In this document: in pieces, positions 26,834 through 56,171 of the stretch
Numbering within the stretch: the first letter of the stretch is position 1
Layout of the letters: the number at the start of each line of letters is the position of its first letter
Source: an uncultured Methanosarcinales archaeon
GTDB lineage: Archaea > Nanobdellota > Nanobdellia > Woesearchaeales > JACPBV01
NCBI GenBank assembly: GCA_964618315.1
Contig: CAZTWQ010000003.1
Coordinates: forward strand, 17,215 to 81,214
Direction of reading: 5' to 3'
DNA: 64,000 nt
Position numbers and translations under genes: made by a program
The notes under the pieces: generated by a model
What the model was told of the DNA's origin: nothing
Databases searched by the model: none
Seen by the model: the letters and a program-made list of their open reading frames with translations, nothing else

Positions 26834-28243
26834 ATGAATGTATTACTCATAAAACCGCAAAGTAAACATATGTTATATTGCGACTTGCCAGAAGAAGTGG
26901 ATTCAGAAAGAGGACTCTACCCACCCCTTGGATTGATGTATGTTGCTTCTCACCTAAGGGAAAATTCTGATGTAAATGTAAAGATGCTAGATATGGTAGC
27001 AGACAACGTAACAATAAATGATTTACATCAATATATAACAAAAATTAAACCAGATATTGTAGCGATACAATCGATTACATATACAATAATTGATACCATA
27101 GAAACAGCAAACAAAATAAAAGAGATTGACAATAGTATCAAGATCGTTATTGGGGGAATTCACGCCACAATATACCCTGAAGAAACAGCAAACATACCAA
27201 GCGTCGATTATGTAATAAATGGGGAGGGCGAAAGAGTATTTACAGAACTTGTAAAAAATATTGACAATCCTGAAAAATTAAAAGAAATAAAAGGTCTTGC
27301 TTTCAAAGAAGGGGATAAAATAATAAATAACGGCAGAAGCGATATTATACAGAATATTGATGAGTTGCCTTTCCCTGCAAGAGACCTATTACCTTACAAA
27401 AAATATTATTCTGTTCTTGCAAAAAGATCCCCATTAACAACAATGATAACCAGCAAAGGTTGCCCTAACCAATGTGTTTTTTGTGATAGGCCAATACTAG
27501 AGAACAAATTCAGACCAAGATCACCAAAAAATGTTGTTGATGAGATGGAAGCATGCACAAACCTGGGCATCCATGAATTCTCCCTTTATGATGATACATT
27601 TACAATTAATAAAAAACGAGCCATGGATATATGTGATGAAATTATAAAGAGGAAATTAGACATAGGTTGGGATGCAAGAGCAAGAGTAAACACAGTAGAT
27701 AAAGAAATCCTAACAAAAATGAAAAAAGCAGGCTGTGATCGGGTCTATTATGGTGTTGAATCAGGAGATGCAAATATTTTAAAAGTAATAAAAAAGAATA
27801 TAACCCTCCAACAAGTAGAAACTGCATTTAAAATAACTAAAAAAATAGGAATTCAAAGACTTGCCTACTTTATGATAGGTCTACCAACAGAGAAAAAAGA
27901 AAATATATTAAGAACTATAAAATTTGCAAAGAAAATTGCCCCAGATTATGCTGTATTCTCACTATTCACACCTTTACCTGAAACAGAAGCCTATAATATA
28001 TACCTAGAAAAAGGTTTGTTCAAAGACTACTGGAGAGAATTTGCAAAAAACCCTACATCAGATTTCAAGCCAAAAGTTTTAGAAGACACTATGACAAAAA
28101 AAGAGTTAATGGAATTATTAAAATATGCCTATAAATATTATTACCTTAACCCAAAATACATCTTAAAGAGAATATTATCAATAAAAAGCTTTGATCAACT
28201 AAAAACACAAGCCAAAGCAGGGCTAAACTTATTAAAACTTTAA
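26834..28243 (+). CDS. Radical SAM protein with B12-binding-type N-domain
   Basis: SKGCPNQCVFC (CxxxCxxC), VIGGIHATIYPE, GVESGDANIL, IGLPTEKKE. Confidence 0.9.
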   Translation: MNVLLIKPQSKHMLYCDLPEEVDSERGLYPPLGLMYVASHLRENSDVNVKMLDMVADNVTINDLHQYITKIKPDIVAIQSITYTIIDTIETANKIKEIDNSIKIVIGGIHATIYPEETANIPSVDYVINGEGERVFTELVKNIDNPEKLKEIKGLAFKEGDKIINNGRSDIIQNIDELPFPARDLLPYKKYYSVLAKRSPLTTMITSKGCPNQCVFCDRPILENKFRPRSPKNVVDEMEACTNLGIHEFSLYDDTFTINKKRAMDICDEIIKRKLDIGWDARARVNTVDKEILTKMKKAGCDRVYYGVESGDANILKVIKKNITLQQVETAFKITKKIGIQRLAYFMIGLPTEKKENILRTIKFAKKIAPDYAVFSLFTPLPETEAYNIYLEKGLFKDYWREFAKNPTSDFKPKVLEDTMTKKELMELLKYAYKYYYLNPKYILKRILSIKSFDQLKTQAKAGLNLLKL

Positions 28244-29334: not shown

Positions 29335-30681
29335 ATGATTGAAAAAAATATATTATTAATATCAGAATGCCCAAAAATTAAAAGTAACTATGTAAATAGC
29401 TTGCCCCCTATAGGAATTTTAACCCTGGCTTCTTTTTTAGAATCTAAAGGTGCAAAAGTAGATGTCATAGATTACAATGTTGAAAAAAGAAAACCAGTAA
29501 ACTACAAAAAATATGACTTAATAGGTTTTAGTGCTTATTGCAGCAATATAGAAAATACTTTAAAACAAGCAAAATGGATAAAGGAAACAACCAATGCCGC
29601 AATAATAGTGGGTGGCCCTCACTGTATGGCTAATCCTCTATTATATATTAAAAAACCATTTATAGATGCAGCCATAATCGGAGAAGCAGAATACACATTA
29701 TATGAATACTTAACAAAAAAAGACAAATCAGAAATTAAGGGGCTATATATAAGAAAAGATAATAAACCATTTTTTACTGGAAACAGAGAATATATCAAAG
29801 ATCTGGATCAACTCCCATTTCCAGCCCTTGAAAAAGTAGATATAAAACATTATAATGTTCCGTTAAAAAAAGCAAAACCAATCTCAAATATAATGACTTC
29901 CAGGGGGTGTCCATTCCAATGCATTTTCTGTTTTCATTCTCTCGGAACTCAATTTAGGGCAAGATCTCCAAAAAATGTGGTTGATGAAATAGAATGGCAA
30001 ATCAACAAATTTGGAGTAAAAGAAATCTGCATTTTTGATGATAATTTTGCATTAGACGCAAAAAGGGCAGAAAAAATAGCAGATCTCATAATTGAAAGGG
30101 GCCTAAAAATAAAGTTACAATTTACTAATGGAATAAGAGTAGATAATATAACAAAAGAGTTATTATTCAAACTAAAAAAAGCAGGGATTTGGCTAGTTGG
30201 TGTTGCACCAGAAAGTGGAAACCAAGATTCATTAATTAAAATGAAAAAAGGCGTTAGTTTAGACAAAATCAAACAGGTAGTTAAATGGTGTAAAGAATTA
30301 GGTATAATAACCCACTCTTATTTTATGATGGGATTTCCATGGGAAACAAAACAGCATTTGATAAACACAATAAATTTCGCTGAAAAATTAGATACAGATA
30401 TAACACAATTTACAAGGGTCATGCCTTTTCCAGGAACAGAACTCTATAAAATGATGGAACTGAAATTAGATACAGAATCTAAAAATGATCAGGGATTATT
30501 TTATGGGAGCATACAACACAAAGTTGCTAATTTAACAGAAAAAGAAGTGCACAAGTATATTAAAATTGGATACAGGAAAACATTTATAAAACCAAAAAAA
30601 ATTTTTAAATTATTAATAACTCTAAATCTAGTAGATTTCTTTAAACTTTGCTTATATGCAATAACTTCAGAAAGTGTCTAA
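29335..30681 (+). CDS. Radical SAM protein with B12-binding-type N-domain
   Basis: SRGCPFQCIFC, IVGGPHCMANP, VAPESGNQDSL, MGFPWETKQ. Confidence 0.9.
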   Translation: MIEKNILLISECPKIKSNYVNSLPPIGILTLASFLESKGAKVDVIDYNVEKRKPVNYKKYDLIGFSAYCSNIENTLKQAKWIKETTNAAIIVGGPHCMANPLLYIKKPFIDAAIIGEAEYTLYEYLTKKDKSEIKGLYIRKDNKPFFTGNREYIKDLDQLPFPALEKVDIKHYNVPLKKAKPISNIMTSRGCPFQCIFCFHSLGTQFRARSPKNVVDEIEWQINKFGVKEICIFDDNFALDAKRAEKIADLIIERGLKIKLQFTNGIRVDNITKELLFKLKKAGIWLVGVAPESGNQDSLIKMKKGVSLDKIKQVVKWCKELGIITHSYFMMGFPWETKQHLINTINFAEKLDTDITQFTRVMPFPGTELYKMMELKLDTESKNDQGLFYGSIQHKVANLTEKEVHKYIKIGYRKTFIKPKKIFKLLITLNLVDFFKLCLYAITSESV

Positions 30682-36451: not shown

Positions 36452-37168
36452 CTATTTCTTAACTGAATCTGTAGATAAAAAAGTTGATCTAACATTAAAT
36501 ATTATCCTAACTAACTCAACAAAAATATTAAGAAAATAAAAAATTAAGATAATCTTCAAATTAAATAACACAATAAAAGGAAAAATATAATAATTAAAAT
36601 TGATAAGTGCAACAATAATTTTAGATAAAAGAGAATATTTTGACTTTAAACCTTGTTTTGAAGATTGATATGTATCAGAAGAACATACGGCTTCGCAATA
36701 ATAATAATTCTTACCCCTATCCCCTGGATGAATAATTAAAGTGATGTAATCCCTTATGACCATCAAGGTAACCAAAGAGAAAGCCACTATAAGTATATTT
36801 AATTCCCCATAATAAAAAAATAAGCCCAAGGGCAATATAAAATGAAACAGCTTAATAGTAAAGATATCTGTAATCAAATCTAATTTTGCACCAACCTTTG
36901 AAGTTTGCCCTGTAACTCTAGCAACAGGACCATCGCACCAATCTAATATAAAACCCAGGAAATATAATATAACTGCTGGAATCTTTAAGAATATGAAATA
37001 GAAATACAACCCAACAAAAGAGATAAAAGTGCCAAGAAAAGTTATTGTATTTGGCTTCACCTTTAATTTCAAAAAAACCCAGATAAAAGGAAGAGTTAGA
37101 AATCTATTTATCCTCCTATGAAGGAATTTATAATCTGCAGGTTTTGCATATTCTTTAAAAAGTCCCAT
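36452..37168 (-). CDS. CDP-alcohol phosphotransferase family membrane protein (canonical motif)
   Basis: DWCDGPVARVTGQTSKVGAKLDLITD, the complete DxxDGxxARx8GxxxDxxxD motif. Confidence 0.8.
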   Translation of the reverse strand: MGLFKEYAKPADYKFLHRRINRFLTLPFIWVFLKLKVKPNTITFLGTFISFVGLYFYFIFLKIPAVILYFLGFILDWCDGPVARVTGQTSKVGAKLDLITDIFTIKLFHFILPLGLFFYYGELNILIVAFSLVTLMVIRDYITLIIHPGDRGKNYYYCEAVCSSDTYQSSKQGLKSKYSLLSKIIVALINFNYYIFPFIVLFNLKIILIFYFLNIFVELVRIIFNVRSTFLSTDSVKK

Positions 37169-37304: not shown

Positions 37305-38012
37305 ATGATAATTGCAATAGATGGAAAATATGGTGTTGGAAAAACAACAACCGCAAAATGCTTAGCAAGAAGATTAGGATACAATTACCTCAGTACTGGA
37401 GCTATATTTAGGGCAATTGCACTTAAAGTTATAGAAGTAAAAATAGAAAAAGAAGACAAAGAAGCAATAATAAAAATTGCAAAAGAGATAAATATTGAAG
37501 TAAAACAGATCGACAAAGAAACAAAAATCTTTATCGATGGAAAAGATTTAACAGAAAAAGCATATACCCATAATGAAAAAATTGACTCAGTAACATCCTA
37601 CCTTGGAAGAAACATACCTGAAGTTACTGAAATAATAACAAAACTGCAGAGGGAGATTGCCAAGAGCGGAAACTTTATTTTCGAAGGAAGAGACATGACA
37701 TCAAGAGTTTTCCCAAACGCAGACTGGAAATTCTACATACAAGCAGAGATGATGAAAAGAGCTGAAAGGATGTATAAAATTCTCCCCGATGAAGAAAAAG
37801 AAACCTATCCCACCATAGAAGATTACTCTAAACTAGATCATTTTCATAAAGAATACCCTGGAGCAGAAGACGCTATTGTCTATGACAACACATATAGCCC
37901 AACACCTGAACAAGATGCGATTGTCCTTGAATATTATATAACTCATCCTAAAGAAATATTAGGGAATATCGGTAAAATAAAAGATAAAAAAGAACCAATA
38001 AAAAATAACTAA
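37305..38012 (+). CDS. cmk: Cytidylate kinase (type 1-like) with C-terminal extension
   Basis: MIIAIDGKYGVGKTT P-loop; YLSTGAIFRAIA (compare YLDTGAMYRA). Confidence 0.75.
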   Translation: MIIAIDGKYGVGKTTTAKCLARRLGYNYLSTGAIFRAIALKVIEVKIEKEDKEAIIKIAKEINIEVKQIDKETKIFIDGKDLTEKAYTHNEKIDSVTSYLGRNIPEVTEIITKLQREIAKSGNFIFEGRDMTSRVFPNADWKFYIQAEMMKRAERMYKILPDEEKETYPTIEDYSKLDHFHKEYPGAEDAIVYDNTYSPTPEQDAIVLEYYITHPKEILGNIGKIKDKKEPIKNN

Positions 38013-38917
38013 TATTTTATCTTTAAATCTTTTATCACATCATTCTCAGGATTCAGATAATCCTGGATAAATACTCTTTGTAATCCTTCTTTCTTCCCAT
38101 AACCAACTGAGACTAAGAGAACTCCATTATATTTATATGGTTTCAACAATTTATGGCAATGTCCAAAAATATGTAAAATCTTAGAATTTGGACTGACTTT
38201 TTTTGCATAATTGAATATAGGAATATACCAACAATTCCTTTTCTCCAATCTCAACTTAGGATCAGAATTTGAATGACTTCTAAAAACAATTTGAGTTACT
38301 CCCCCGCCGCACTTATCTAAAATAGATTTAATTTCTAAAGTATATGCCCTTAATTCGTTATCAGTTCTCTCCTCTATGTAAGGGATATTAATCTCAAGAG
38401 TTTTGCCTATAACTTTAAACTCTATATTGATTAATTTGCGAAACGCATGTGAATTATCCAAAATATCAAACAATGTTTCCCCTTTGGATTTTTTAGGGGG
38501 TAATAACTCATACGCTTTTCTTATCCTTTTTTCTTTATCCCAATCATTCCCCCCAAGATCTAAAATCTGTGGAATTTTCCCACTATTTACATATCCCTCA
38601 ATTAATTTATGCATTCTTCGTGTTGGCTCTAAAACTCCCAACCACTGTTTGATTAATACCTGTTTGTATTTACCCCTCCACTCAATATTTTCAGCTTCCA
38701 CATAATTCTTACCTTGTTCTTTAGCCATTAATTTAGATTTTCTAAGTAGATTTTCACCATTAGTTTCAGAAAAATTTGGATCAACGCTTCTATCTCCAAC
38801 TAACACAAATTCATCAATATGAGGAAAATTCTCAGATATAAACTCCAATACAACATTTGCAGAATTTTCTAAGTGAAAATCACTAGTGTTACATACAAGA
38901 TAACTTTTTTTCATCAT
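38009..38917 (-). CDS. Calcineurin-like metallophosphoesterase
   Basis: Ordered motifs SDFH (DxH), LVGDRS (GD), LGGNDWD (GNxD), RSHS, IFGHCH (GHxH). Confidence 0.7.
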   Translation of the reverse strand: MMKKSYLVCNTSDFHLENSANVVLEFISENFPHIDEFVLVGDRSVDPNFSETNGENLLRKSKLMAKEQGKNYVEAENIEWRGKYKQVLIKQWLGVLEPTRRMHKLIEGYVNSGKIPQILDLGGNDWDKEKRIRKAYELLPPKKSKGETLFDILDNSHAFRKLINIEFKVIGKTLEINIPYIEERTDNELRAYTLEIKSILDKCGGGVTQIVFRSHSNSDPKLRLEKRNCWYIPIFNYAKKVSPNSKILHIFGHCHKLLKPYKYNGVLLVSVGYGKKEGLQRVFIQDYLNPENDVIKDLKIKY

Positions 38918-38942
38918 AACTTTATCAAAATCTATTACACAC

Positions 38943-40352
38943 TTATTTAATTATCCCTTTCCCCTCTAACTTATCAACTAATTTCTGAACAGACTCTTCA
39001 ACAGAATATTTATCAGTATCTAATACTATATCTGGAGATTTAGGCTCTTCATATTTTGAAGAAACACTAATAAAATTCTCAAAACCTTTATGATTATCTC
39101 TTGCTTTCTTATAATGCCCTTTGACATCCCTATTCTCACACACATCCAAAGAACATTTGACATAGACTAAAAAGAACTTTTCCAATATCTTCCGTGCATA
39201 TTCCCTAGATTGATATGTAGGTGAAGCAACAGATGCTATAACCAATTTTCCCCCATTAGAACTTGATTTACACAACTCAGCAACCCTCTTCATATGCTCG
39301 TTCCTTTCACCTAATGTATAGCCTAAATCAGAAGATAGATTCTTTCTTAACTCATCTCCATCCAAAAGAACAAAAGATACATCCCTATCTTTCAATATTT
39401 TACTCAATCTTTCAGAAATCGTAGATTTTCCAGATCCATGTAAACCAGTAAACCACAAAGTCCACCCAGGTCCAACATCAGAAGAGCCCCCGTTGGCCTT
39501 ATTACGTATTTTCTCCAAAATCCCGTCACTTATCTCAATCTCACCTAATGTAGACCTCTCATTATCATGATAATCATTACCCCCACTTTCTAAGATGTTT
39601 TTAGACTTTACAATTCCCCTATAAAACTCTATAAGTTTCGTATTTCCTTCTTTATCCAAATTTAGTTTAGGGCTTATGATATGATAAGGATAATATGTCT
39701 CTATGCCTTGTCCACCATTTTCAATAAAATAATCAATAATCTTAATTGAATTTTCTTTTGGGTATATCCCTGGATGCGCCAATATAGAAATACCGCCCGC
39801 CCCTTTAATAATATCTATAACATCTTTAATTGATACCCTATGATTAGTCTCTAAAAAAGCTTCTTTCCCCCTACCTATTAATTTATCAAAAACCTCCCCG
39901 ACAGATTTAAACTTTTCAGGATATTTTTTTATCAAATATCTTGCAATATGCGGCCTCCCAAATGTTCCTTTGACTGTCTTTTTAACATCTGAATATTCTA
40001 TATCATAACCTAAGCTCTTTAATTTAGAGATTATCCTTTTCTTATTCCCTTCCCTTTTGACATTTATGTGCCTTATTAATTCAACCAATCTATTATTATT
40101 AGAATCGACAAATAATCCTATAACATCTATCTTATCATAATTGAATAAAGGATCGTCACAGCTTAGCTCTACACCAGATATTATCTCTATATTTTTACCC
40201 TTAGAATAATCAATTGCCTTCTTTATTGAACCCAAAGAATCGTGGTCTGTTATAGCAATAGCACTTAGCTTTTTTTCAATAGCAAAATCAACAAGTTCTT
40301 CAGGAGTTAATTCTCCATCTGATGATATAGTGTGATTATGTAAGTCTATCAT
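38943..40352 (-). CDS. cysC: Fusion protein: N-terminal PHP-domain phosphoesterase + C-terminal adenylylsulfate (APS) kinase
   Basis: N-terminus MIDLHNHTISSDGELTPEELVDFA...AITDHDS...GGNDYHD (PHP, COG0613-like). C-terminus GWTLWFTGLHGSGKSTISERL, LLDGDELRKNLSSDLGYTLGERNEHMKRV (CysC blocks). Confidence 0.85.
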   Translation of the reverse strand: MIDLHNHTISSDGELTPEELVDFAIEKKLSAIAITDHDSLGSIKKAIDYSKGKNIEIISGVELSCDDPLFNYDKIDVIGLFVDSNNNRLVELIRHINVKREGNKKRIISKLKSLGYDIEYSDVKKTVKGTFGRPHIARYLIKKYPEKFKSVGEVFDKLIGRGKEAFLETNHRVSIKDVIDIIKGAGGISILAHPGIYPKENSIKIIDYFIENGGQGIETYYPYHIISPKLNLDKEGNTKLIEFYRGIVKSKNILESGGNDYHDNERSTLGEIEISDGILEKIRNKANGGSSDVGPGWTLWFTGLHGSGKSTISERLSKILKDRDVSFVLLDGDELRKNLSSDLGYTLGERNEHMKRVAELCKSSSNGGKLVIASVASPTYQSREYARKILEKFFLVYVKCSLDVCENRDVKGHYKKARDNHKGFENFISVSSKYEEPKSPDIVLDTDKYSVEESVQKLVDKLEGKGIIK

Positions 40353-40370
40353 TTAAATTCCCATCATTTC

Positions 40371-40994
40371 CTAATCATTCAATATGTCTATAAGCAGCAG
40401 CACAAGCTTATCAAATCTTTCTTTCCCTATTTTTACTTTTTGAACTGGAGTCATCTTCACAAACTCCCCCCCAGTAGAATCCTTAATCACTTCTTTTCTT
40501 CCAAAAGAACTATCAACAGTACTTGGCTGCCCAATATTTCCCCTAAAAGGATATATTTTGATATGTAAATGCTCTTTTTTTTCTTTCCATGTCGTGCATT
40601 TTCCATATGTGCCTATAGAAATCGCCATCCCCCTATCTTCAGATATAGCCTTTAATTCTTGGTCCTGTATCATCACTACAGTCATTGCCCTACATATATT
40701 AGAAAATATTACACCATAATTTTCAGCTAATTTAGGATAAAAACTTATTTGAGAAAAATGAGTAAGGTGAGAAAAAGGCATCAACTGTATTGTAAAATCT
40801 AACTTGAGGTCTCCCCCAGTTTTTGGAGATAAAGTAGCAAACCACCCATCTTTTAAATTTCCTACCTTGCATATCACTGCACCATATCCAGTCTTTTCAC
40901 CAATACTGTATTTGACTTCTTTACACAGATTACATCCATCAACAAGAGTAACATCTTCATTAAATAATTTATCAGCTTCTTCAGATTTATACAT
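40371..40994 (-). CDS. HIT-superfamily-like protein with variant HxHxK motif
   Basis: CNLCKEV near the N-terminus, LSPKTGG...IQLMPFSHL, and EHLHIKIYPF in the position of the histidine triad. ATG 40994 is preceded by GGGGAT. Confidence 0.5.
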   Translation of the reverse strand: MYKSEEADKLFNEDVTLVDGCNLCKEVKYSIGEKTGYGAVICKVGNLKDGWFATLSPKTGGDLKLDFTIQLMPFSHLTHFSQISFYPKLAENYGVIFSNICRAMTVVMIQDQELKAISEDRGMAISIGTYGKCTTWKEKKEHLHIKIYPFRGNIGQPSTVDSSFGRKEVIKDSTGGEFVKMTPVQKVKIGKERFDKLVLLLIDILND

Positions 40995-40995
40995 T

Positions 40996-42084
40996 TTAAT
41001 CCCCAATTACCCTGATATACTCATCATTCTTCCTCTCACTCAGGTAAGCATCAAAATATCCTACAACCACCCTATAATATTTCCCCCCTTTAATAGGGGT
41101 CACTTCTTCAACCACCCCACTTACCTCAACTGTCTCCCCTTCATAAGCAAGCATACAATAATCCCTAGAATAAAAAGCAATTTTATCTATAAGCAAATCT
41201 TTGCAGGAATCATCTCCAGAAATGAATTTTGAGTTAGAAATTGTATAACAACCAGGCCTCACAACCGAACTTTTATTATCTTTAACCAGCCCTTCAAATT
41301 TAGCTATCCCTAATTTCCTATACTTCTCTTCACCCCACTTAAACCAAGTTTCATCTTCATTCTCAACAGCAAATATTACAAACAAAGTTCCTTTAAAGAA
41401 ACCTTCAGATTTTTTCCTATACATATTCTCAATATATATCTCTTTCTTATGTATAACATGTCTATTTCTTTTCTTATAGAAAGCTTCCCATTCTTCATAA
41501 GTCTTCCATCTTAAATCTGGATGATCATTCTTTTTTAAAAACTCCATCAATTCCCAGAAGTTTTCCTTACCATATACAACTATATTTACATCAGATATAT
41601 TAGGAGAGTAATGCCCCATAAGGGTAGAATAGGTAATACCAAAATCCTTTAATTCTAGGCCGCTCTTAAGAATAAATGAAACAAACTGGGCAACTGTCTT
41701 AAGATGCTCATCCAAATCTCTCTCAGGCATACTCATAAGGTCAGCAAGTCCTTCTTTAGGAGAATAAATCCTTTCTATATTATTCTTTGAAACAATAAAG
41801 AACAATGGACTTTCTTCATGTATTGGGCTCTTGAATATATATTCAGAATAAGCTCCAGTAAATGTTTGAATATATTGTTTAAGCTCATCTTTATCTATCC
41901 AAAGATTAAGTCTGTTCATCTTCTTTCCAGAAATAAACCTGTAGGGTAAAAAATCACATGAAATCTTATCAGTAGGTATATACTTAGGCTTGACTAAAAT
42001 CCCTTCTTCAGGATGTTCATTCCCATATACTTGGCAATGAATTCCGTCAACGGTTGTTATTATTGTAGATTCGTAGAAATGCAT
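40996..42084 (-). CDS. Pol-beta-superfamily nucleotidyltransferase, COG1665-like, paralog B (degenerate DxN)
   Basis: FGITYSTLMGHYSPNISDVNIVVYG (second Asp replaced by Asn). N-terminus HFYESTIITTVDGIHCQVYGNEHP...KPKYIP and C-terminus YYRVVVGYFDAYLS are shared with paralog A. Confidence 0.6.
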   Translation of the reverse strand: MHFYESTIITTVDGIHCQVYGNEHPEEGILVKPKYIPTDKISCDFLPYRFISGKKMNRLNLWIDKDELKQYIQTFTGAYSEYIFKSPIHEESPLFFIVSKNNIERIYSPKEGLADLMSMPERDLDEHLKTVAQFVSFILKSGLELKDFGITYSTLMGHYSPNISDVNIVVYGKENFWELMEFLKKNDHPDLRWKTYEEWEAFYKKRNRHVIHKKEIYIENMYRKKSEGFFKGTLFVIFAVENEDETWFKWGEEKYRKLGIAKFEGLVKDNKSSVVRPGCYTISNSKFISGDDSCKDLLIDKIAFYSRDYCMLAYEGETVEVSGVVEEVTPIKGGKYYRVVVGYFDAYLSERKNDEYIRVIGD

Positions 42085-42086
42085 TT

Positions 42087-43187
42087 TTACAATCCAGATT
42101 TAATAAACTCAGCCTCCCTCCTATCACTAACATAAGCATCGAAATAACCGATTACAACCCTATAATATCTATCACCAATTGTGGGAGTCACCAATTCAAG
42201 CAACCCGCATGCAGTTATCTCTTCCCCGGTCAAAGCTTGCTGCACAAATGGGATTGAATATGTAACTACCCTCTTAATCCCTAAAGAACCATCAACATCC
42301 ATATCTTTTCCATGATTATCTGTTATTTTACCATCTATAATCTCATAATATCCTGGCCTTACATGACTATTATAATGATCTATAACTTTCCCTTTCACTG
42401 TAACAAGTCCCATAGGCTCATACTTCTCTTCTCCCCACTTAAACCAAGTCTCTTCTGGTTCTTCAACAGTAAACAATGTAAAAACTGTATCCCCAAACAT
42501 GCCCTCATACTTCTTTCTTTTCATATGCTTAACATATTCTTCCTCAGTAAAATGAGATGATTCTGAAGTCTTATGCTCTTTATAATATTCTGCCCATTCT
42601 TCATCAGTTTTCCATTTTAACAAAGAATGCTTTGCATCCTTCAAATAATCAAGTACTCTCCACCCATTATCTTTGCCATATACTATTAAATCTATATCAG
42701 ATCTACCTGGAGTATAATTTCCAAGTAGAGTAGAATGAGTTATCCCTAAATCAGTAGACTTAACTCCACTATTTGTCAATAATTCAACCAATTCAACAAC
42801 AAGAGTAAGATACTTATCTAGGTCATTTTTAGGCACTTTCAAAAGCTCTTGAAGCCCTTTTCTACTATCATGTACTTTTTTTATCTTGCTTTTAGGAACA
42901 ACAAAGAACCAGTTATCATGAAATTTAGAATCATGTATATAATCAGGAAATTTTTGTCTAAACTGCTTTAGATATTCATTAACATTATCCTTTTTTGCAA
43001 AAAGATTGAATCTTACAAAACATTTTTCAAAAAGAAACCGATACTTCAGACCTTCTCCTTTTATCGCATCCTGAGGAATATACTTAGGTTTTACTATCAC
43101 ATATCCTTCAGGATGTTCATTTGCATAAGATTTACACTGAAATCCATCTACAGTATCTATCAATATCGATTCATAAAAATGCGCCAA
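42087..43187 (-). CDS. Pol-beta-superfamily nucleotidyltransferase, COG1665-like, paralog A (canonical DxD)
   Basis: LGITHSTLLGNYTPGRSDIDLIVYG. TTG 43187 with AGGTGAT SD 5 nt upstream gives an N-terminus (M)AHFYES parallel to paralog B. The track start is GTG 43196. Confidence 0.6.
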   Translation of the reverse strand: MAHFYESILIDTVDGFQCKSYANEHPEGYVIVKPKYIPQDAIKGEGLKYRFLFEKCFVRFNLFAKKDNVNEYLKQFRQKFPDYIHDSKFHDNWFFVVPKSKIKKVHDSRKGLQELLKVPKNDLDKYLTLVVELVELLTNSGVKSTDLGITHSTLLGNYTPGRSDIDLIVYGKDNGWRVLDYLKDAKHSLLKWKTDEEWAEYYKEHKTSESSHFTEEEYVKHMKRKKYEGMFGDTVFTLFTVEEPEETWFKWGEEKYEPMGLVTVKGKVIDHYNSHVRPGYYEIIDGKITDNHGKDMDVDGSLGIKRVVTYSIPFVQQALTGEEITACGLLELVTPTIGDRYYRVVIGYFDAYVSDRREAEFIKSGL

Positions 43188-43378
43188 ATATATCACCTAA
43201 TGCCCTTACAATCAATATTTTGGAGTAATTGTCGATATATAAATGTTATTAATTCATAATACATAATAGTTAATTTAAAGCATAAATTACAGTTTACTAT
43301 AAGGTTATTACTTAAAGTAACTAAAAAATAAGTAAAAAACAAATCATTTATAAATATAATTTACTTTTTTAATATTAA

Positions 43379-44872: not shown

Positions 44873-46372
44873 ATGAGAGTATGTTTAATTAATCCTGGAA
44901 GAACCTATTATGAAAAATCTTCTTCTGTATCTAATGTGGATATAGGCTTGCCTTTAGGGATAATGTATCTTGCCTCATTTCTAGAAAAAAAAAACCACGA
45001 TGTCAAGATAATAGACTCATTAGTAATGGATGAAGCTGTTCTAGAAACAATAGACAACTCTAGAAGAAGATACGGCGCTCCATTAAAAATTATTAAATCA
45101 GAAGTTGAGAAATTCAAGCCAAATATTATAGGTGTTTCGAATCTTTTTAGTTCCCAGATAATTGATGCTGTAGAAACCACCAAAGCTATGAGGGAAATAT
45201 ATCCTACTATCCCACTTGTGATTGGGGGACCCCACGTAACTGTAAAAGGAAAAGAGTTTATGAAAAAAAATAAGCATATTGATTTTGCCCTACTAGGTGA
45301 AGCAGAAAACTCTTTTTCAGATTTATTATATCATATAGATGGCAAAAAGAATATAACAGATATTGATGGAATCATCTATAGAAAAAATGATAATATAATT
45401 GAAAACAAAAAATTAAGATTTATAAAAAATCTAGATGACTTGCCATTTCCAGCCTACCATTTAGTAGATATGGAAAAATATTTATCTTTATCTGAAAAAG
45501 GAATATACTCTAGGTCTATAGATGAAGAAAGAAGCATTTCAATAATTACCAGCAGGGGTTGCCCTTATAACTGTATATTTTGTTCTATCCACTGCCATAT
45601 GGGCAAGGAATGGAGACCCCACTCTGCACAATATGTTATAGACCACATAAAACATGTAGTTAACAAATACAAAATTAAACATATCCATTTTGAGGACGAC
45701 AATCTTACTTTAGACCTAAAAAGGTGCGGAAAAATTTTGGACGGCATTATTGAAAATAACCTTAATATCAAGTGGGATACCCCTAATGGCGTTAGAGCAG
45801 ATCGATTTAATGAAGAAATCGCTTTGAAGATGAAAAAATCAGGATGCACCAAACTTACAATGGGTGTAGAATCAGGAGATCAGTCAGTACTGGACAATAT
45901 AATTCAAAAAAATCTTAAACTAGAAAACGCCATTAAGATGGCAAGGATATGTAAGAAATTTAATATACCATTAAGTGCATTTTATGTTATTGGATTTCCT
46001 GGAGAGAGAAAAGAGAATATAGAAAAAACAATTAAATTTGCCCTAATGCTCCAAAGAAAATATAATGTGATGCAAGGTGGAGCTTTCTACGCAACCCCAC
46101 TTTATGGTACAAGACTTTACAATATATGCAAAGAAAACTCATATCTTACTAAAGAGATAACCCCCCAAGCATTATCCGAAGCTACTGCAGCATATGGTAC
46201 AAGTTTAATAAAAACAGAAGACTTCTCCCCTGAATATCTAAAAAAAGCAAATCAAAGATTGATAAGAGCTAATTACCTCAACTACTTATATCACCCTACA
46301 AAAGCAATAAAGTTTCTGTTCAAAAACCCTAAAATTATATTCAGTGTATTAAACAGGTTTTTAGGAAGATGA
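44873..46372 (+). CDS. Radical SAM protein with B12-binding-type N-domain
   Basis: SRGCPYNCIFC, VIGGPHVTVKG, GVESGDQSVL, IGFPGERKE. Confidence 0.9.
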   Translation: MRVCLINPGRTYYEKSSSVSNVDIGLPLGIMYLASFLEKKNHDVKIIDSLVMDEAVLETIDNSRRRYGAPLKIIKSEVEKFKPNIIGVSNLFSSQIIDAVETTKAMREIYPTIPLVIGGPHVTVKGKEFMKKNKHIDFALLGEAENSFSDLLYHIDGKKNITDIDGIIYRKNDNIIENKKLRFIKNLDDLPFPAYHLVDMEKYLSLSEKGIYSRSIDEERSISIITSRGCPYNCIFCSIHCHMGKEWRPHSAQYVIDHIKHVVNKYKIKHIHFEDDNLTLDLKRCGKILDGIIENNLNIKWDTPNGVRADRFNEEIALKMKKSGCTKLTMGVESGDQSVLDNIIQKNLKLENAIKMARICKKFNIPLSAFYVIGFPGERKENIEKTIKFALMLQRKYNVMQGGAFYATPLYGTRLYNICKENSYLTKEITPQALSEATAAYGTSLIKTEDFSPEYLKKANQRLIRANYLNYLYHPTKAIKFLFKNPKIIFSVLNRFLGR

Positions 46373-46440: not shown

Positions 46441-47172
46441 ATGGTATCATCAATAAAACAACTCAATAAACTTCTTGCTGAAAAGAACAAACCAATATTA
46501 TCCAGAACATTCAGATATCTCTCAATATTTTTAGCCAAACCCCTACTTTATACACCAATTACAGCAAACCAAGTTAGTTTTGTAAATCTTTTCCTACCAC
46601 TTATATCTGCTTTTTTATTTACATTTAACAATTATACATATTCAGTAATAGCAAGTCTAATCTTATTCTTTTCAGTAATTCTCGACTTTGTTGATGGTGA
46701 TATTGCAAAATACAAAAAACAAAAGTCATTATATGGTGTATACCTCGAATGCCTATACCATGAAATAGCTATGCCCTTTGTTTTTTTAGGGCTAGGTATT
46801 AACGCATACAATCACTATAACAACAACCTGTTTATTTATTTGGGTGTTTTTGTTATCTTAATGGTCTTCATAATGAATATAGTAAGACTAAATAAATACA
46901 AGATTATCCTACAATCAAAGAAAGGATTAGATAAAGAATTCTCCCCTGCATTAGCAATGAAAAAGAACAAAACACATTTACAAAAAATAGTATTCTTCAT
47001 CATAGGCATATTCACCAAAATCACTATGTTTTGGCTTGTGATGCTCTTATTTTCCGTATTTAACTTACTGCATTATGCAATAAGCCTTTACGCTATTTTT
47101 TACCTGATTATTGGTACTTCTAAAATATTTATTGAACTAAGAACAGGTTTTAAGGAATTTGAGAATGGCTAA
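46441..47172 (+). CDS. CDP-alcohol-phosphotransferase-like membrane protein, divergent motif
   Basis: DFVDGDIAKYKKQKSLYGVYLECLYH: DxxDGxxA retained, but R is replaced by K and the last two Asp by E and H. 6-7 TM helices. Confidence 0.6.
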   Translation: MVSSIKQLNKLLAEKNKPILSRTFRYLSIFLAKPLLYTPITANQVSFVNLFLPLISAFLFTFNNYTYSVIASLILFFSVILDFVDGDIAKYKKQKSLYGVYLECLYHEIAMPFVFLGLGINAYNHYNNNLFIYLGVFVILMVFIMNIVRLNKYKIILQSKKGLDKEFSPALAMKKNKTHLQKIVFFIIGIFTKITMFWLVMLLFSVFNLLHYAISLYAIFYLIIGTSKIFIELRTGFKEFENG

Positions 47173-48634
47173 AGTTCTATTGATTAATCCCCAGGCAGAA
47201 ATTGGGAAGAAAGTTAAAGGGGGTATTGCTGCTCCGCTTGGTTTGTTATCTATAGGTTCTTATGTAATCAAAAGGGGATATTCTGTTAAGATAATTAATA
47301 CAATACTTGAAAATGATCCTATGAGAAATGTATTAGATGAAACCAAAGAAGCAAAATACATTGGACTAAGTGTGATGACTGCCCAGATTACACATGCTTT
47401 AATCATGAGCGAGAAACTAAAATCTCTAGGAAAAATAATAATTTGGGGTGGAATCCATGGTGAACTATTCCCTAAACAAACATGTGAAGATTCAGCTATT
47501 GATTATGTCATTTGTGGGGAAGGAGAAGCAACTTTCTTTGAATTGATAGATTCTTTAGAAAAAGGAAAAAGTGTAGAAAATATCCCTGGATTAGTACATA
47601 AAAAAGAAAATAAAGTCATAGTTAATCCACCAAGAAAACCATTGCCAGTCGAAGCTTTCTCTGATATAGATTATGGGCTTCTTGATCTAGAAAGGAAATT
47701 CAAGAAAAAAAGGATGCTTGAATTTGAGACTTCAAGGGGTTGCCCTTACCGTTGTGGATTTTGTATAGATACAATAGGTTGGAGGCACAATTGGAGATCC
47801 TTACCTGCTGAAACTGTTTTAAATGATCTGGAAAAAATGAAAGATAAATACAAAATTGAAGAAATTATATTCAGAGAAGAAAATTTCTTTGTAAATCAAA
47901 AAAGAGCAGAAAAAATAATTGAAGGTATGATCAAAAAAGGATTAAATATAAAATGGTCAACAAATATTAGAGCAGAGTATTTTAAAGATGATTATGTAAA
48001 TGATGAATTTATGACAAAACTAAAAAAATCTGGTTTAACATCCCTTACATTCGGAGTTGAATCTGGATCTGAACGAGTCAGAGGATATATGAAAAAAGGT
48101 ATTACAAGTGAACAAGTATTTAGGGCTGTAAGTTATTGTAAAAAACATGATATCCATTGTAATATTACTTTTATGGTGGGTTATCCTACTGAAACAAAAA
48201 AAGAGATATTTGAAACAATAAATATGATCAATAAGATAATTAAAATACATCCAGACGTAACAATCCGTGGGCCAGTGCCTTTTATGCCCCTCCCTGGTGC
48301 TTCTATTTATCAATATTGTCTTGATTGCGGTTTTAAAGAACCTAAAACCTTAAGAGAATGGTCCAAACGTGAATTTGATTTGCTGTCATATTTTAAAGAA
48401 TATTGCGCTGATAGTAATTTTTTAGGTGTTGATAAAAAAGACCGTTATCTTATAGAAAATATTGGCAAATACTCCACCCTAGCTACCAGTTCATGGGGTA
48501 GAATTATGAGCTTCTCACCATTATTAATATTACCTACACTATTATGTAAAATCAGATGGAAGTTAAAATTCTTTAGATTCCCTATTGATTATAAGTTGTA
48601 TAAATGGGTGACTAAAAAACTCCCAGTATATTAA
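47165..48634 (+). CDS. Radical SAM protein with B12-binding-type N-domain
   Basis: SRGCPYRCGFC, IWGGIHGELFP, GVESGSERV, VGYPTETKKE. ATG 47165 (track TTG 47159) overlaps the upstream gene end. Confidence 0.9.
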   Translation: MAKVLLINPQAEIGKKVKGGIAAPLGLLSIGSYVIKRGYSVKIINTILENDPMRNVLDETKEAKYIGLSVMTAQITHALIMSEKLKSLGKIIIWGGIHGELFPKQTCEDSAIDYVICGEGEATFFELIDSLEKGKSVENIPGLVHKKENKVIVNPPRKPLPVEAFSDIDYGLLDLERKFKKKRMLEFETSRGCPYRCGFCIDTIGWRHNWRSLPAETVLNDLEKMKDKYKIEEIIFREENFFVNQKRAEKIIEGMIKKGLNIKWSTNIRAEYFKDDYVNDEFMTKLKKSGLTSLTFGVESGSERVRGYMKKGITSEQVFRAVSYCKKHDIHCNITFMVGYPTETKKEIFETINMINKIIKIHPDVTIRGPVPFMPLPGASIYQYCLDCGFKEPKTLREWSKREFDLLSYFKEYCADSNFLGVDKKDRYLIENIGKYSTLATSSWGRIMSFSPLLILPTLLCKIRWKLKFFRFPIDYKLYKWVTKKLPVY

Positions 48635-48674: not shown

Positions 48675-49340
48675 ATGAAGAAAAAAATACCTAATAAAAT
48701 TGACAGGGACCTCGTATTTAGATATTTCTCCAGACCCATTGGAAGATTACTTATCAAACCAGCCTATTATTTAGGTATAACCAGCATCCAATTAAGTTTA
48801 TTCATGATGTTTCTCACTTTATTTAGTTTTGGGCTTATAGCATATGGGAAGATAATATTAGCCACAATTTTACTCCAATTCTGCATAATTCTCGATATGA
48901 TGGACGGAACAATGGCAAAATTAAGAAACCAACAATCTGTATATGGCAGATTCTTATCAGCTATATGGCACAACAACATAATGCCATTATTCTTTCTGGC
49001 TGTAGGATTCCATTCATACAAATTAAACAACAATATAATATTTTTAATCATAGGTATACTTACAAGTCTTTTCATAATATCAATAAACTTAACAGAATAT
49101 CTTAAAAGAACACTTATGTACAAATTTAGTTTGTTAAAACCATCTGGAAAATCAAAAAAATATCCTAAACTTAGATTAGATGAATGGATTATAATGCTTA
49201 TTGCAGGCACAGGCTATATATTTACCTATGCATTGATACTTTCATTCTTTGGCTGGCTCCACTATATGACAATACCTTACTTCATATTCTACACTACATT
49301 ATTCACTGCAAAATCCATTATCTTTCTAAAGAAGTTTTAG
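48675..49340 (+). CDS. CDP-alcohol-phosphotransferase-like membrane protein, divergent motif (paralog of 46441..47172)
   Basis: DMMDGTMAKLRNQQSVYGRFLSAIWH: the same AK / ...H variant as the paralog. Confidence 0.6.
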   Translation: MKKKIPNKIDRDLVFRYFSRPIGRLLIKPAYYLGITSIQLSLFMMFLTLFSFGLIAYGKIILATILLQFCIILDMMDGTMAKLRNQQSVYGRFLSAIWHNNIMPLFFLAVGFHSYKLNNNIIFLIIGILTSLFIISINLTEYLKRTLMYKFSLLKPSGKSKKYPKLRLDEWIIMLIAGTGYIFTYALILSFFGWLHYMTIPYFIFYTTLFTAKSIIFLKKF

Positions 49341-50573: not shown

Positions 50574-51989
50574 TTAATTATCTTTACTAAATTTAAAAAT
50601 GCCTTTAAGTAGCGGCAAAGCGGTCCGTATAGTCCATTTTAGTTCCCTCATTGACTTAATCAAAAACAAAAACTCAAAAATCTTTGAAGGTCTGAAATAA
50701 AAGCTTGTATACGCTTTTCTTTGATACTTCAATACTTCTTTACTCTTTAAATCACCTAATTCATAATGCCCTTCATTAATAGTATAATACCCCTTATCAA
50801 CACTAGAAGCATCCCTAACAAATTTCCCTTGTTTTTTTATCATCTCAAAAAGCTCTGTATCCGGCATAGGAATAGTGATTGCAAAATTTGCTATATGTGG
50901 ATTTGCTTTCTTTGCAAAATCTATTGTTCTCTGCATAGTCTCAGAATTATCTCCAGGTAAACCCAACATAAAGAACCCAAAAACAGTAATCTTCTCTTCC
51001 CTAAACCACATTATTGCCTGAACAACCTTATCAAGATCCAAATTTTTCTTTATATTTTTCATAATTCCTGGATCTCCAGTTTCTATACCTACCCCTACTT
51101 TATACACCCCAACTTTTTTCATCTTACATACAATCCCCTTAGTTAACCTATCTGCTCTAAGCCCATTAGGAAATGTTATATGCACTTTTATCTTTCTTTC
51201 AATAAGCATATCTAATATTCTTTCTGCCCTTTCAAGATCTAAGGTAAAATTATCATCTAAAATATCTATTTGTTTAACATTATATTTATTAACCAAAAGT
51301 TCTATTTCATCAATAATATTTTCTGGTGAACGTTTCCTAAACTTGCTTCCAAAAATATTCTTATTACAATATACACATTGATATGGACAACCCCTGCTTG
51401 TTAATACAGGAGCAACAGGACTTTCCCTGGACCTGCTTTCATAAAGTTTCAAATCTGGAAGAAGATGATAAGCTGGAAAAGGAATCATATCCAGATCCTC
51501 AATAAGGCTTTCTCTTGGATTATTCACTATTTCTCCCTTTCGAATATAGCTAACCCCCCTCATACCATCTAAATTTCCTTCATTCTTAACAATATTCCAA
51601 AACACCAATTCCCCTTCCCCCATTACAACACAATCTGCTTCTGATTCATCCAAGGTCTCCTTTACCATTGAAGTTGCAAAAGGCCCCCCAATCACAACAA
51701 ATTTTCCAATACTTTTCTTAAGAAATTTAGAAATCTGATTTGCATCTTTAGCATAAGCTATATTAGATGATATACCTATAAAATCTGGATCAAAATCCTC
51801 AATTAATTTTAGAATCTCATTATCTTCTAATCTAAGAAGATTTGCATCAATTATCTTACAATTTACCCCTTTTGATTCAAGAAATGACGCTATATAAGCT
51901 AATCCCAAAGGGGGGTAATTTGTTGCCTCATTTATCTCCCTTGCAAAGAAAGGAAATGGCCTGATAAGCACTACTCTTTTAAAAGTCAT
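50574..51989 (-). CDS. Radical SAM protein with B12-binding-type N-domain
   Basis: SRGCPYQCVYC, VIGGPFATSMV, GIETGDPGIM, LGLPGDNSE. Confidence 0.9.
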   Translation of the reverse strand: MTFKRVVLIRPFPFFAREINEATNYPPLGLAYIASFLESKGVNCKIIDANLLRLEDNEILKLIEDFDPDFIGISSNIAYAKDANQISKFLKKSIGKFVVIGGPFATSMVKETLDESEADCVVMGEGELVFWNIVKNEGNLDGMRGVSYIRKGEIVNNPRESLIEDLDMIPFPAYHLLPDLKLYESRSRESPVAPVLTSRGCPYQCVYCNKNIFGSKFRKRSPENIIDEIELLVNKYNVKQIDILDDNFTLDLERAERILDMLIERKIKVHITFPNGLRADRLTKGIVCKMKKVGVYKVGVGIETGDPGIMKNIKKNLDLDKVVQAIMWFREEKITVFGFFMLGLPGDNSETMQRTIDFAKKANPHIANFAITIPMPDTELFEMIKKQGKFVRDASSVDKGYYTINEGHYELGDLKSKEVLKYQRKAYTSFYFRPSKIFEFLFLIKSMRELKWTIRTALPLLKGIFKFSKDN

Positions 51990-56155: not shown

Positions 56156-56171
56156 ATTCAACCACAACAAC

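Follow-up and report, generated by a model that had tools for sequence, protein, structure and literature searches.

A conserved nucleotidyltransferase, HIT-like, and phosphohydrolase cassette in DPANN archaea, a candidate PAPS-type donor pathway for surface glycans

Introduction

The canonical route to an activated sulfate donor is the 3'-phosphoadenosine 5'-phosphosulfate (PAPS) pathway of Sat or CysDN, CysC, and CysQ. To our knowledge, sulfate activation is thought to depend on two enzyme types only, Sat and CysDN. Here we analyze an operon at positions 38009-43196 of a 64,000-nucleotide stretch of DNA from an uncultured archaeon (contig CAZTWQ010000003.1, positions 17,215 to 81,214; this whole stretch is called the window). 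The operon encodes an adenosine 5'-phosphosulfate (APS) kinase fused to a PHP domain, together with three proteins that have no counterpart in the canonical pathway: two Pol-beta-type nucleotidyltransferases, NT1 and NT2, and a HIT-like protein. We put at about even the chance that this cassette serves to produce and recycle an anion donor activated by a 3'-phospho-nucleotide, most probably PAPS, with which surface glycans are decorated.

The locus resembles the canonical pathway in that an APS-kinase domain with conserved contacts is coupled to a domain of the 3'-phosphoadenosine 5'-phosphate (pAp) phosphatase type. Further points of likeness come from relatives: sulfotransferase genes lie nearby, and in two of these relatives the fusion partner of the kinase is a CysQ-family domain. 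It differs from the pathway in that no Sat or CysDN was found in ~83 kb of the contig or in related loci, and the phosphatase is a PHP (or HD) protein rather than CysQ.

A second point of comparison is the O-methyl phosphoramidate (MeOPN) pathway of Campylobacter jejuni (Cj1415-Cj1418; PMC11800397), which is likewise encoded in a polysaccharide cluster: a nucleotidyltransferase forms a nucleoside diphosphate-linked group (NDP-X), which receives its 3'-phosphate from an APS-kinase homologue before a transferase passes the group to the glycan. However, Cj1416 belongs to another nucleotidyltransferase fold (PF12804), and the DPANN cassette adds a HIT-like protein, a degenerate nucleotidyltransferase paralogue, and a phosphatase dedicated to bisphosphate nucleotides. 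The Pfam lists of the cassette genes and their immediate neighbors contained no MeOPN glutamine kinase, amidase, or PF12804 cytidylyltransferase; the kinase homologue alone is shared.

Among HIT-superfamily proteins, the GalT/Apa1-2 branch has ADP-sulfurylase activity. Fhit, Hint4, and DcpS act on APS, Fhit makes AMP-NH2 from APS, and HIT proteins are phosphoramidases; the enzymes form and break AMP-sulfate and AMP-amide bonds via a His-AMP intermediate (PMC4613722). The HIT-like protein of the window has such enzymes as its top structural matches, carries HxHx on a beta-strand, and shows a CxxC...H...HxH spacing like that of the GalT-branch zinc site and nucleophile. It differs from them in that profile searches detected no homology, in the Lys at the third position of the triad, in being a single 207-aa domain, and in being often fused to a nucleotidyltransferase paralogue.

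Our literature searches, which included the topics of DPANN sulfotransferases, Woesearchaeota APS kinases, and CitG with methanopterin, returned nothing describing the cassette. Within the literature searched, the PHP::APS-kinase fusion, the universal pair of active and degenerate nucleotidyltransferases, and the HIT-like family appear to be undescribed, as do the NT2::HIT and Phosphodiest::NT1 fusions, the interchange of PHP, HD, and CysQ-like proteins, and the repeated association with sulfotransferases. We know of no characterized PHP::APS-kinase fusion.

Results and Discussion

A cassette conserved across DPANN loci

The list of open reading frames (ORFs) of the window contains five ORFs in this interval, all on the minus strand: NT1 (42087-43196, 369 aa from GTG), NT2 (40996-42084, 362 aa), the HIT-like gene (40371-40994, 207 aa from the ATG at 40994; the full ORF is 40371-41006), the PHP::APS-kinase fusion gene (38943-40352, 469 aa), and a fifth gene (38009-38917, 302 aa). 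The gaps along the operon, from NT1 to the fifth gene, are 2, 1, 18, and 25 nt. The same five genes appear in the public gene calls for the 100-kb contig JGI 3300022916 Ga0233431_1000385, and the window is the reverse complement of part of that contig. Both sources agree with the first-pass annotation of the window, which had described five co-directional genes 1 to 25 nt apart. Short intergenic gaps are common in compact genomes, and therefore the spacing by itself is weak proof of a functional unit.

A pattern scan of one genome per species gave 64 loci, which we scanned with profiles from our own alignments. We call a locus well covered when 5 kb or more of sequence precede NT1 and 6 kb or more follow it; 34 non-redundant loci qualify, and counts out of 34 refer to these. 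NT2 adjoins NT1 in every one of them, the HIT-like gene follows the pair in 32/34, and a phosphohydrolase gene follows in 34/34, so the gene order is beyond chance. The phosphohydrolase is a PHP protein in 25/34 loci, an HD-domain protein in 7/34, and a CysQ-like (PF00459) domain fused to an APS kinase in 2/34. Each of the 34 loci has exactly one of the three, a pattern of non-orthologous displacement, and PHP and HD occur together in none of 10 HD loci. A PF01663 phosphodiesterase is present in 18/34 loci, an APS kinase lies within 10 kb in 16/34, and a sulfotransferase-family gene lies within 10 kb in 9/34. The conserved cassette consists of NT1, NT2, the HIT-like gene, and one nucleotide phosphohydrolase, with an APS kinase also present in about half of the loci. 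All five genes of the operon had at first been proposed to form one module, with conservation of the neighborhood in related genomes as a check. The neighborhood is strongly conserved across the 34 loci, and the NT1-NT2-HIT-phosphohydrolase part of that module stands; the APS kinase is not a constant member, and about half of the loci carry PF01663 instead.

The close homologues are all from DPANN archaea, labelled Woesearchaeota, Nanoarchaeota/Nanoarchaeia, Iainarchaeum, or Aenigmatarchaeota. The same gene order recurs in distant DPANN genomes, always within glycan islands that contain Wzx, glycosyltransferases, epimerases, and sulfotransferases, and this position is stable across 65 loci. 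The host of the operon in the window is an uncultured DPANN archaeon of the Woesearchaeota/Nanoarchaeota type, and the operon lies within a large surface-glycan biosynthesis island.

Several members of the cassette are joined in fusions. NT2::HIT occurs in 7 loci, PHP::APS kinase in the window and in L013, and an APS kinase fused to a CysQ-like (Inositol_P) domain takes the PHP slot in L018 and L067. Phosphodiest::NT1 was found in 7 loci, four of them with this simple arrangement (L047, L050, L051, and L062) and three as Phosphodiest-HD-NT1 (L049, L059, and L066). In many loci the stop codon and start codon of the HIT and phosphohydrolase genes overlap, which couples their translation. The kinase variant and the PF01663 variant (~460 aa) are each present in every NT1 identity band.

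The HIT-like gene is absent from L034 and L069. Nothing occupies its slot in L069. In L034 (12189-13499), and in the less covered L039 (6222-7721), a ProRS-like class II synthetase paralogue (tRNA-synt_2b, 1.2e-21, plus ProRS-C_1) stands between NT2 and PHP; thus, the HIT slot is held there by another adenylate-forming enzyme.

Two variants of the arrangement were seen in single loci or small groups. The NT2::HIT-like ORF of L051 (11061-13499) is a triple fusion, with a C-terminal extension of ~270 aa whose sole match, to HAD hydrolases, is weak (E 0.0018). In four kinase-containing loci, L052 (8608-9999), L056, L058, and L063, the position immediately before NT1 is held by a gene for a pyruvate-kinase-like protein (PK barrel, 7.5e-31, plus PK_C) whose weak N-terminal MarR-type match (E 0.007) is below the cutoff.

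The fusion protein combines an APS kinase with a PHP domain

The fusion protein consists of a PHP domain of the COG0613 type, to which the 3',5'-nucleoside-bisphosphate (pAp) phosphatases and RNase AM belong (39498..40352, minus strand; aa 1 to ~285; PF02811, 4e-15), followed by an APS-kinase domain (38943..39470, minus strand; aa ~295 to 469). The kinase matches PF01583 over profile positions 2-152 of 152 (E = 7.6e-45; 153 bits against a cutoff of 21.1) and exceeds the cutoff of TIGR00455 (169.4 against 138.7 bits). It aligns end to end with human PAPSS1, Mycobacterium tuberculosis CysC, and archaeal APS kinases. The APS contacts of M. tuberculosis CysC are Asp480, Arg483, Phe492, Arg497, Lys562, and Phe576, and the human equivalences given with them correspond to a constant offset of 391 between the CysC and PAPSS1 numbering (PMC4373884). 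In the alignment to PAPSS1, the window kinase has D, R, Y, R, K, and F at these six positions, each contact being either identical or a conservative substitution. The P-loop, the Asp of DGD, both phosphosulfate-binding Arg residues, the ribose-binding Lys, and both adenine-stacking aromatics are retained, and the only nearby changes are Asn90 to Glu and Asn109 to His (PAPSS1 numbering). Judged by its cutoff scores and contact residues, the kinase half is a bona fide APS kinase.

The PHP half matches four structures in the PDB: 7ug9 (RNase AM, 5e-25), 9etk (a PHP phosphoesterase), 2yb1 (the pAp phosphatase Cv1693, 9e-22), and 3e0f. Its alignment to 7ug9 and 2yb1 spans aa 2-225, and the DLHNHT (N-terminal HxH metal site) and GRPH motifs are visible. 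In NCBIfam it matches RNase RNM (1e-41) and nucleoside bisphosphate phosphatase (1e-39). The likeness to Cv1693 and RNase AM/YciV extends over ~220 residues, including the HxH metal site and the GRPH region. However, the equivalog scores are far too low for assignment to either (NF041577, 136 bits against a cutoff of 400; NF047791, 143 bits against 375), and the window PHP is fused to an APS kinase. We infer pAp as the likely substrate of the PHP domain. Both domains are ordinary members of known families, and the fusion itself, which had been read from the sequence at first pass, is supported by Pfam, the TIGR00455 cutoff, the alignments, and the PDB matches.

NT1 and NT2 are an intact and a degenerate paralogue

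NT1 and NT2 are 43% identical, which agrees with the initial description of the pair as paralogues. NT1 is laid out as an N-terminal beta-rich domain, a nucleotidyltransferase core (GITHS...SDIDL), and a C-terminal OB-like barrel. Its PF01909 match, at aa 155-187 over GITHS...SDIDL, is below threshold (19.4 bits against a gathering score of 21; E = 0.0014), and a weak PF01909 match is found in 35 of 38 family members (best E 2.8e-4). The Pol-beta motif hG[GS]x9-13Dh[DE]h is present in NT1 as GITHS...SDIDL. Across the NT1 and NT2 sequences from all fetched loci, DxD is kept in 66/66 NT1 sequences. The motif of NT2 is degenerate (GITYS...SDVN): the second catalytic Asp is replaced by Asn, and DxN is found in 64/64 NT2 sequences. 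Therefore, the metal-binding carboxylate has been lost throughout NT2.

By these motifs, NT1 is the catalytically intact paralogue, a predicted active Pol-beta-type nucleotidyltransferase, and NT2 is probably a non-catalytic or altered partner subunit. Since NT2 is catalytically degenerate, the pair is probably one enzyme plus a partner, and not the two enzymes that had been supposed before the NT2 sequences were compared. The two would act as a heterodimer.

The AlphaFold2 model of NT1 (pLDDT 93, pTM 0.90) gave only weak local OB-fold matches of the SSB/RPA/LysRS type in a Foldseek search of the PDB (E of at least 0.1; TM below 0.2 on the query), with no solved nucleotidyltransferase or full-length analogue among the matches of the whole model. 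Thus, the overall architecture of NT1 has no solved analogue. PDB searches with the NT1 sequence and profile returned nothing significant.

The 207-aa protein is probably HIT-like

The 207-aa protein has 324 homologues at 58-76% identity, all from DPANN archaea. Invariant in the alignment are C21-x-x-C24, H76, H79, and H142-L-H144-I-K146. Compared with the HIT triad H-phi-H-phi-H-phi-phi, the segment H142-L-H144-I-K146-I-Y has Lys in place of the third His, and the Tyr is Phe in most homologues. The GalT branch has Gln at the third triad position. On sequence, the pattern CxxC...H...HxHx therefore resembles that of GalT, with Lys replacing the third His/Gln.

The AlphaFold2 model of the protein (pLDDT 85.9, pTM 0.82) was compared with the PDB by Foldseek. 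HIT proteins (Hint, Fhit, DcpS, and NitFhit) account for 9 of the 10 top matches and for most of the top 25, with weak statistics: the best E is 0.059, the top matches lie at 0.06-0.5 and the wider set at 0.06-1, the probability is at most 0.97, and the target-normalized TM is 0.5-0.6. Neither Pfam nor NCBIfam gave a HIT, DcpS, or GalT match for the protein or for its 34 aligned homologues, and PDB searches with its sequence and with its profile gave no match. By hhalign, the profile aligned its HxH motif with that of HINT1 and FHIT (approximate reference sequences) at a nonsignificant E of 0.1-0.2. From the model, the 207-aa protein is probably HIT-like. The first-pass annotation had called it a HIT-like HxHxK protein; the fold is plausible, given the top Foldseek matches, and profile support for it was not obtained.

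A weak Pfam match to DUF2806 was found in 13 of the 34 aligned HIT-like homologues (best E 4e-5); the window protein has no such match.

Sulfotransferases adjoin the cassette in relatives

Sulfotransferase-family genes of four unrelated types (PF00685, PF13469, and PF03567 matches) lie within 10 kb of the cassette in 11 loci. They comprise PF00685 sulfotransferases in L025, L044, L045, and L048, Sulfotransfer_3/1 in L047 and L073, a strong PF00685 match (7.8e-31) in L018, and Sulfotransfer_2 in L020, L022, L057, and L067. In L020, L022, and L057, the sulfotransferase gene directly adjoins NT1-NT2-HIT-HD though neither an APS kinase nor a PHP gene is nearby. An APS kinase and/or a sulfotransferase is found in 21/34 loci, which is far above expectation for genes normally present about once per ~1-Mb genome. 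The link to sulfation that had been suggested from the window is strengthened by the four sulfotransferase families beside the cassette in relatives and by the fusions of APS kinase with a CysQ-like domain in the PHP slot.

In the window itself, the Pfam lists, four locus-derived profiles, and a motif scan revealed no sulfotransferase. The ~83 kb examined of its own contig has no Sat, CysDN, CysH, or recognizable sulfotransferase by Pfam, and the Sat motif (QxRNPxHxxH, GRDHAG) and the PAPS-reductase signature are absent from the 2403 ORFs of 74 loci. The first-pass statement that the 64 kb lack Sat/CysDN, PAPS reductase, and sulfotransferase genes therefore holds in the Pfam lists, the motif scan, and the sulfotransferase profiles. 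The sulfurylase-free statement applies to the ~83 kb of contig and the related loci, and a sulfurylase may be encoded elsewhere in the genome.

The SxGKDS PP-loop, a CysD-type pattern, matched only two ORFs, both of 373 aa (L055 8982-10103 and L059 2948-4069), and these could be any PP-loop ATPase.

What the cassette may make

The comparisons make it likely that the cassette is linked to sulfation or PAPS-type chemistry. In the pathway that we favor, NT1/NT2 and the HIT-like protein would carry out nucleotidyl transfer to give a 5'-adenylylated anion, with APS the leading candidate; the APS-kinase domain would phosphorylate the 3'-OH; a sulfotransferase, of which none was identified in the window and four families stand beside the cassette in relatives, would use the donor; and the PHP domain would hydrolyze the by-product pAp to AMP. 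The strongest pointer to pAp as the hydrolase substrate is that a CysQ-family domain, joined to this same kinase, can take the hydrolase slot. The four independent recruitments of sulfotransferases tie the NT1-NT2-HIT core to sulfation. Whether the cassette is a PAPS-type activated-donor pathway with new upstream components is, in our estimate, evenly balanced.

If the anion is sulfate, NT1, NT2, and the HIT-like protein would represent a sulfate adenylyltransferase of a new kind. That these three specifically make APS is a tentative proposal that we place on the unlikely side. Its most far-reaching form, which we think unlikely, is that the NT1-NT2 heterodimer (with one dead subunit) and the HIT-like protein constitute a third sulfate adenylyltransferase class that replaces Sat/CysDN in reduced DPANN genomes. 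Such an enzyme would form APS from ATP (or ADP) and sulfate via an enzyme-AMP intermediate and would feed PAPS-dependent surface sulfation, with the obligatory hydrolase (PHP, HD, or CysQ-like) serving to pull or recycle the reaction. If this is true, core sulfur biochemistry would truly gain a third type, made of the nucleotidyltransferase pair and the HIT-like protein. Should the group not be sulfate, the cassette still offers a first functional handle on two families, the uncharacterized archaeal nucleotidyltransferases and the new HIT-like proteins. It also suggests that anionic decoration (sulfate or an analogue) is widespread on DPANN cell surfaces, the interface where these episymbionts meet their hosts. 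The comparative data predict that NT1 and NT2 form a heterodimer, that H144 is the nucleophile, that the hydrolase acts on pAp, and that the APS kinase and PF01663 are alternative modules.

A number of observations weigh against a sulfate-activating cassette. An APS kinase lies within 10 kb in those 16 loci only, and its presence is anti-correlated with that of PF01663: the kinase occurs without the phosphodiesterase in 13 loci and the phosphodiesterase without the kinase in 15, whereas 3 loci carry both and 3 carry neither (Fisher p=0.0004). The PAPS model does not explain this alternation. The linkage of the phosphohydrolase is tighter with NT1/NT2/HIT than with the kinase; hence, it may act on a substrate other than pAp. 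We know of no Pol-beta nucleotidyltransferase that adenylylates sulfate. The HIT fold is assigned from weak Foldseek scores (E of at least 0.06) with no profile match, and the distant relatives of NT1 and NT2 occupy F420 and methanofuran/tetrahydromethanopterin (H4MPT) cofactor clusters, with no sulfur contexts. The window yielded no sulfotransferase, sulfate transporter, or sulfurylase, and it does carry a PhnD/C/E-like transporter and seven B12-radical-SAM genes, for which the best NCBIfam match is a P-methyltransferase family. Finally, KEGG-style sat calls can be triggered by APS-kinase domains, a reservation that bears on one metagenomic study in which every DPANN metagenome-assembled genome (MAG) from hydrothermal vents is reported to have a sat annotation (PMC8091004).

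The transporter and the radical-SAM genes fit the main rival overall, a PAPS-analogue pathway, which we consider a serious but rather improbable competitor. NT1, NT2, and the HIT-like protein would then activate another anion (phosphoramidate, a phosphonate such as methylphosphonate, or a phospho-ester) as a nucleoside monophosphate-linked group (NMP-X) or NDP-X; the kinase homologue would add the 3'-phosphate, a transferase would move X to the glycan, and the phosphohydrolase would recycle the 3',5'-bisphosphate nucleotide, with true APS, if required, supplied by a canonical sulfurylase elsewhere in the genome. The precedent includes Cj1415, an APS-kinase homologue, and it shows that such a homologue can work on another NDP-X substrate. 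Cj1415-Cj1418 make CDP-phosphoramidate 3'-phosphate for capsule decoration in C. jejuni (PMC11800397), and HIT proteins are phosphoramidases, Fhit converting APS to AMP-NH2 (PMC4613722). The phosphonate-type ABC transporter (150-2209) and the seven radical-SAM genes could serve such a pathway, PF01663 and PF00884 genes of the alkaline-phosphatase superfamily accompany the cassette in many loci, and the sulfate-binding Arg of the APS kinase would presumably also suit a monoanionic phosphoryl analogue. However, the kinase scores above the APS-kinase equivalog cutoff and keeps both adenine-stacking aromatics, the four sulfotransferase families and the CysQ-like fusions indicate genuine PAPS chemistry, and the Pfam lists of the loci contain no glutamine kinase, amidase, or phosphoenolpyruvate (PEP) mutase. 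The operon could also hold two unrelated units: PHP::APS kinase, with a canonical sulfurylase elsewhere, would serve sulfation, and NT1/NT2/HIT would make or edit another nucleotide-activated glycan precursor, for example, an NDP-sugar or NDP-polyol. The 18/34 loci with no APS kinase nearby would be explained in this way; the island is rich in other activation and transfer enzymes, including four CDP-alcohol phosphotransferases and Cmk, CDP-alcohol transferase genes lie near NT1 in 18 loci, and relatives of the nucleotidyltransferases adjoin CofC/CofD/CofE and CitG, enzymes of small-molecule phosphodiester/pyrophosphate chemistry. Such a division is improbable, since the hydrolase slot is filled in 34/34 loci and the hydrolase is linked in both directions, to the kinase by fusion and to the HIT gene by translational coupling, sulfotransferases stand directly beside NT1-NT2-HIT where APS kinase and PHP are absent (L020, L022, and L057), and conventional sugar/alcohol nucleotidyltransferases (PF00483 and PF01467) are already present.

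Two further readings dispense with a donor altogether. The genes might process RNA or nucleotides and have no glycan role, the OB-like domains binding RNA, NT1/NT2 adding nucleotides, the HIT-like protein removing 5'-adenylates as aprataxin does, the PHP domain acting as an RNase AM-type 5'-3' exonuclease, and the kinase and the fifth gene forming a Pnkp-type kinase/phosphatase. The kinase, the metallophosphoesterase-like motifs, and the nucleotidyltransferase do recall bacterial Pnkp, RNase AM is the closest solved relative of the PHP half, and the only PDB matches of the NT1 model are to OB folds of the SSB/RPA/LysRS type. These OB matches are weak, though (E of at least 0.1, TM below 0.2 on the query), and the kinase is an APS kinase by cutoff and residues and not of the Clp1/PNK type. 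With the cassette always in glycan islands, a CysQ-like domain replacing PHP in two loci, the fifth gene not conserved, and the distant nucleotidyltransferase relatives in small-molecule cofactor clusters, a role in RNA processing is very unlikely. We give hardly any weight to nucleotide-signal antiphage defense by a CD-NTase-like synthase with nucleotide-degrading enzymes. A nucleotidyltransferase, a HIT protein, and PHP/HD hydrolases superficially resemble a signal synthase/hydrolase set, and a HEPN-MNT pair and IS91-like fragments occur elsewhere in the window, but PADLOC gave no match for NT1, NT2, the HIT-like protein, or the fifth protein, the glycan-island position is stable in 65 loci, no effector genes were seen, and the kinase is an APS kinase.

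Distant relatives of NT1 and NT2 lie in cofactor clusters

A HMMER search for the NT family in 1.84 billion representatives gave 900 clusters at E<=1e-3. The scores fall sharply, from above 350 bits in the DPANN subfamily to 110-160 bits in a broad archaeal set of full-length (340-360 aa) proteins. These distant relatives include proteins of Vulcanisaeta, Korarchaeota, Thermoprotei, and Methanococcus voltae, which are named "predicted nucleotidyltransferase" or "hypothetical protein." Pfam and NCBIfam have no family for them, and we found no paper on the family in the literature, including under COG1665. The relatives are uncharacterized, and therefore no function can be transferred from them to NT1/NT2.

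In Vulcanisaeta, the relative (L075 6001-8062) is flanked by a RimK-like ligase on one side and a CitG homologue on the other, and the cluster also has genes for formylmethanofuran dehydrogenase, Mch, MfnB-like, Fae, and related proteins (methanofuran/H4MPT). In a Thermoprotei MAG (L076 3955-6074), a tandem pair of relatives with DxD in both copies lies between CofC/CofD and CofE. The gene context in M. voltae was uninformative. The COG1665-like archaeal family thus resembles NT1/NT2 in comprising full-length homologues, single or in tandem. It differs in keeping DxD in both tandem copies, in having no HIT, PHP, or APS-kinase partners, and in lying in cofactor rather than glycan clusters. The first-pass annotation had named independent COG1665 genes as a finding that would speak against the module. 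This was found in part, because members of the broad family do stand apart from the other cassette genes, in the context of small-molecule cofactors; those of the DPANN NT1/NT2 subfamily never do.

The pairing of CitG with the nucleotidyltransferase-like CitX/MdcG presumably offers an analogy for the relatives next to CitG. By that analogy, the uncharacterized family may fill a missing step in cofactor biosynthesis.

The NT1 start, the fifth gene, and the surrounding island

An alternative start of NT1, a TTG at 43187, gives the N-terminus MAHFYES, which matches orthologues, and has AGGTGA 6-7 nt upstream. For these reasons we favor this codon, the start given by the first-pass annotation, as probably the true one (a 366-369 aa product). 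A candidate archaeal TATA box, TTTATATA (43236..43243, minus strand), can be read ~50 nt upstream of the NT1 start, inside the 182-nt divergent intergenic region common to NT1 and the Wzx flippase gene. The GC content is ~31% across the whole window, and an Rfam scan of the window gave no RNA families.

The product of the fifth gene had been annotated at first as a metallophosphoesterase, which we could not confirm. It has 16 homologues, and the motif series DFH, GDR, GND, H215, and GHCH is conserved in 15 homologues, with Asp in place of the His of GNH. Pfam, NCBIfam (Pfam also with all aligned members), and PDB searches by sequence and by profile gave no metallophosphoesterase match. By hhalign, its profile aligned GHCH with GHIH of Mre11 (an approximate reference sequence) at a nonsignificant E of 0.17. 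The gene was found in 1/34 well-covered loci, and in some related loci its position is taken by a second PHP gene. The fifth protein is a lineage-specific accessory outside the conserved unit. The CMP kinase gene cmk (37305-38012, plus strand) is convergent with it, and their 3' ends overlap by 4 nt.

Four paralogous CDP-alcohol phosphatidyltransferase genes lie in the window, at 2944-3618 (minus), 36452-37168 (minus), 46441-47172 (plus), and 48675-49340 (plus), and three PF01467 cytidylyltransferases, a PfkB kinase, and a HAD phosphatase are encoded just outside it (L077 4967-8963). The CDP-alcohol transferases, the CMP kinase, and the PF01467 cytidylyltransferases near the cassette suggest that phospho-alcohol (teichoic-acid-like) decoration takes place alongside it. 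We considered the NT pair as the maker of CDP-alcohol donors for these transferases and rejected it: the cytidylyltransferases are encoded separately, and thus the NT pair is unnecessary for that purpose.

At the edge of the island, the PhnD/PhnC/PhnE-like ABC transporter (plus strand) comprises a permease, an ABC ATPase, and a substrate-binding protein (Phosphonate-bd PF12974, 2.6e-25) whose gene reaches back beyond the first nucleotide of the window (L077 8978-9943). Phosphonate, phosphite, or phosphate could be its cargo, which bears on the rival reading of decoration with phosphonates. The B12-binding radical-SAM genes lie at 6073-7515, 26834-28243, 29335-30681, 44873-46372, 47159-48634, 50574-51989, and 63450-64000. 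The best NCBIfam match of the gene at 44873-46372 is the P-methyltransferase family (1.2e-58, far below the cutoff), and this family occurs in 9 related loci.

The glycan island is interrupted by a minimal nucleotidyltransferase/HEPN toxin-antitoxin-like pair (20226-21330, plus, and 21335-22104, minus) beside IS91-type transposase fragments (Zn_Tnp_IS91 and Y2_Tnp). Three large proteins of 640-791 aa (7508-9862, plus; 53816-56191, minus; and 56172-58094, minus) gave no match in Pfam. Members of the 640-aa family are also found in 11 of the related loci, and any of the three could be the missing transferase or polymerase of the island.

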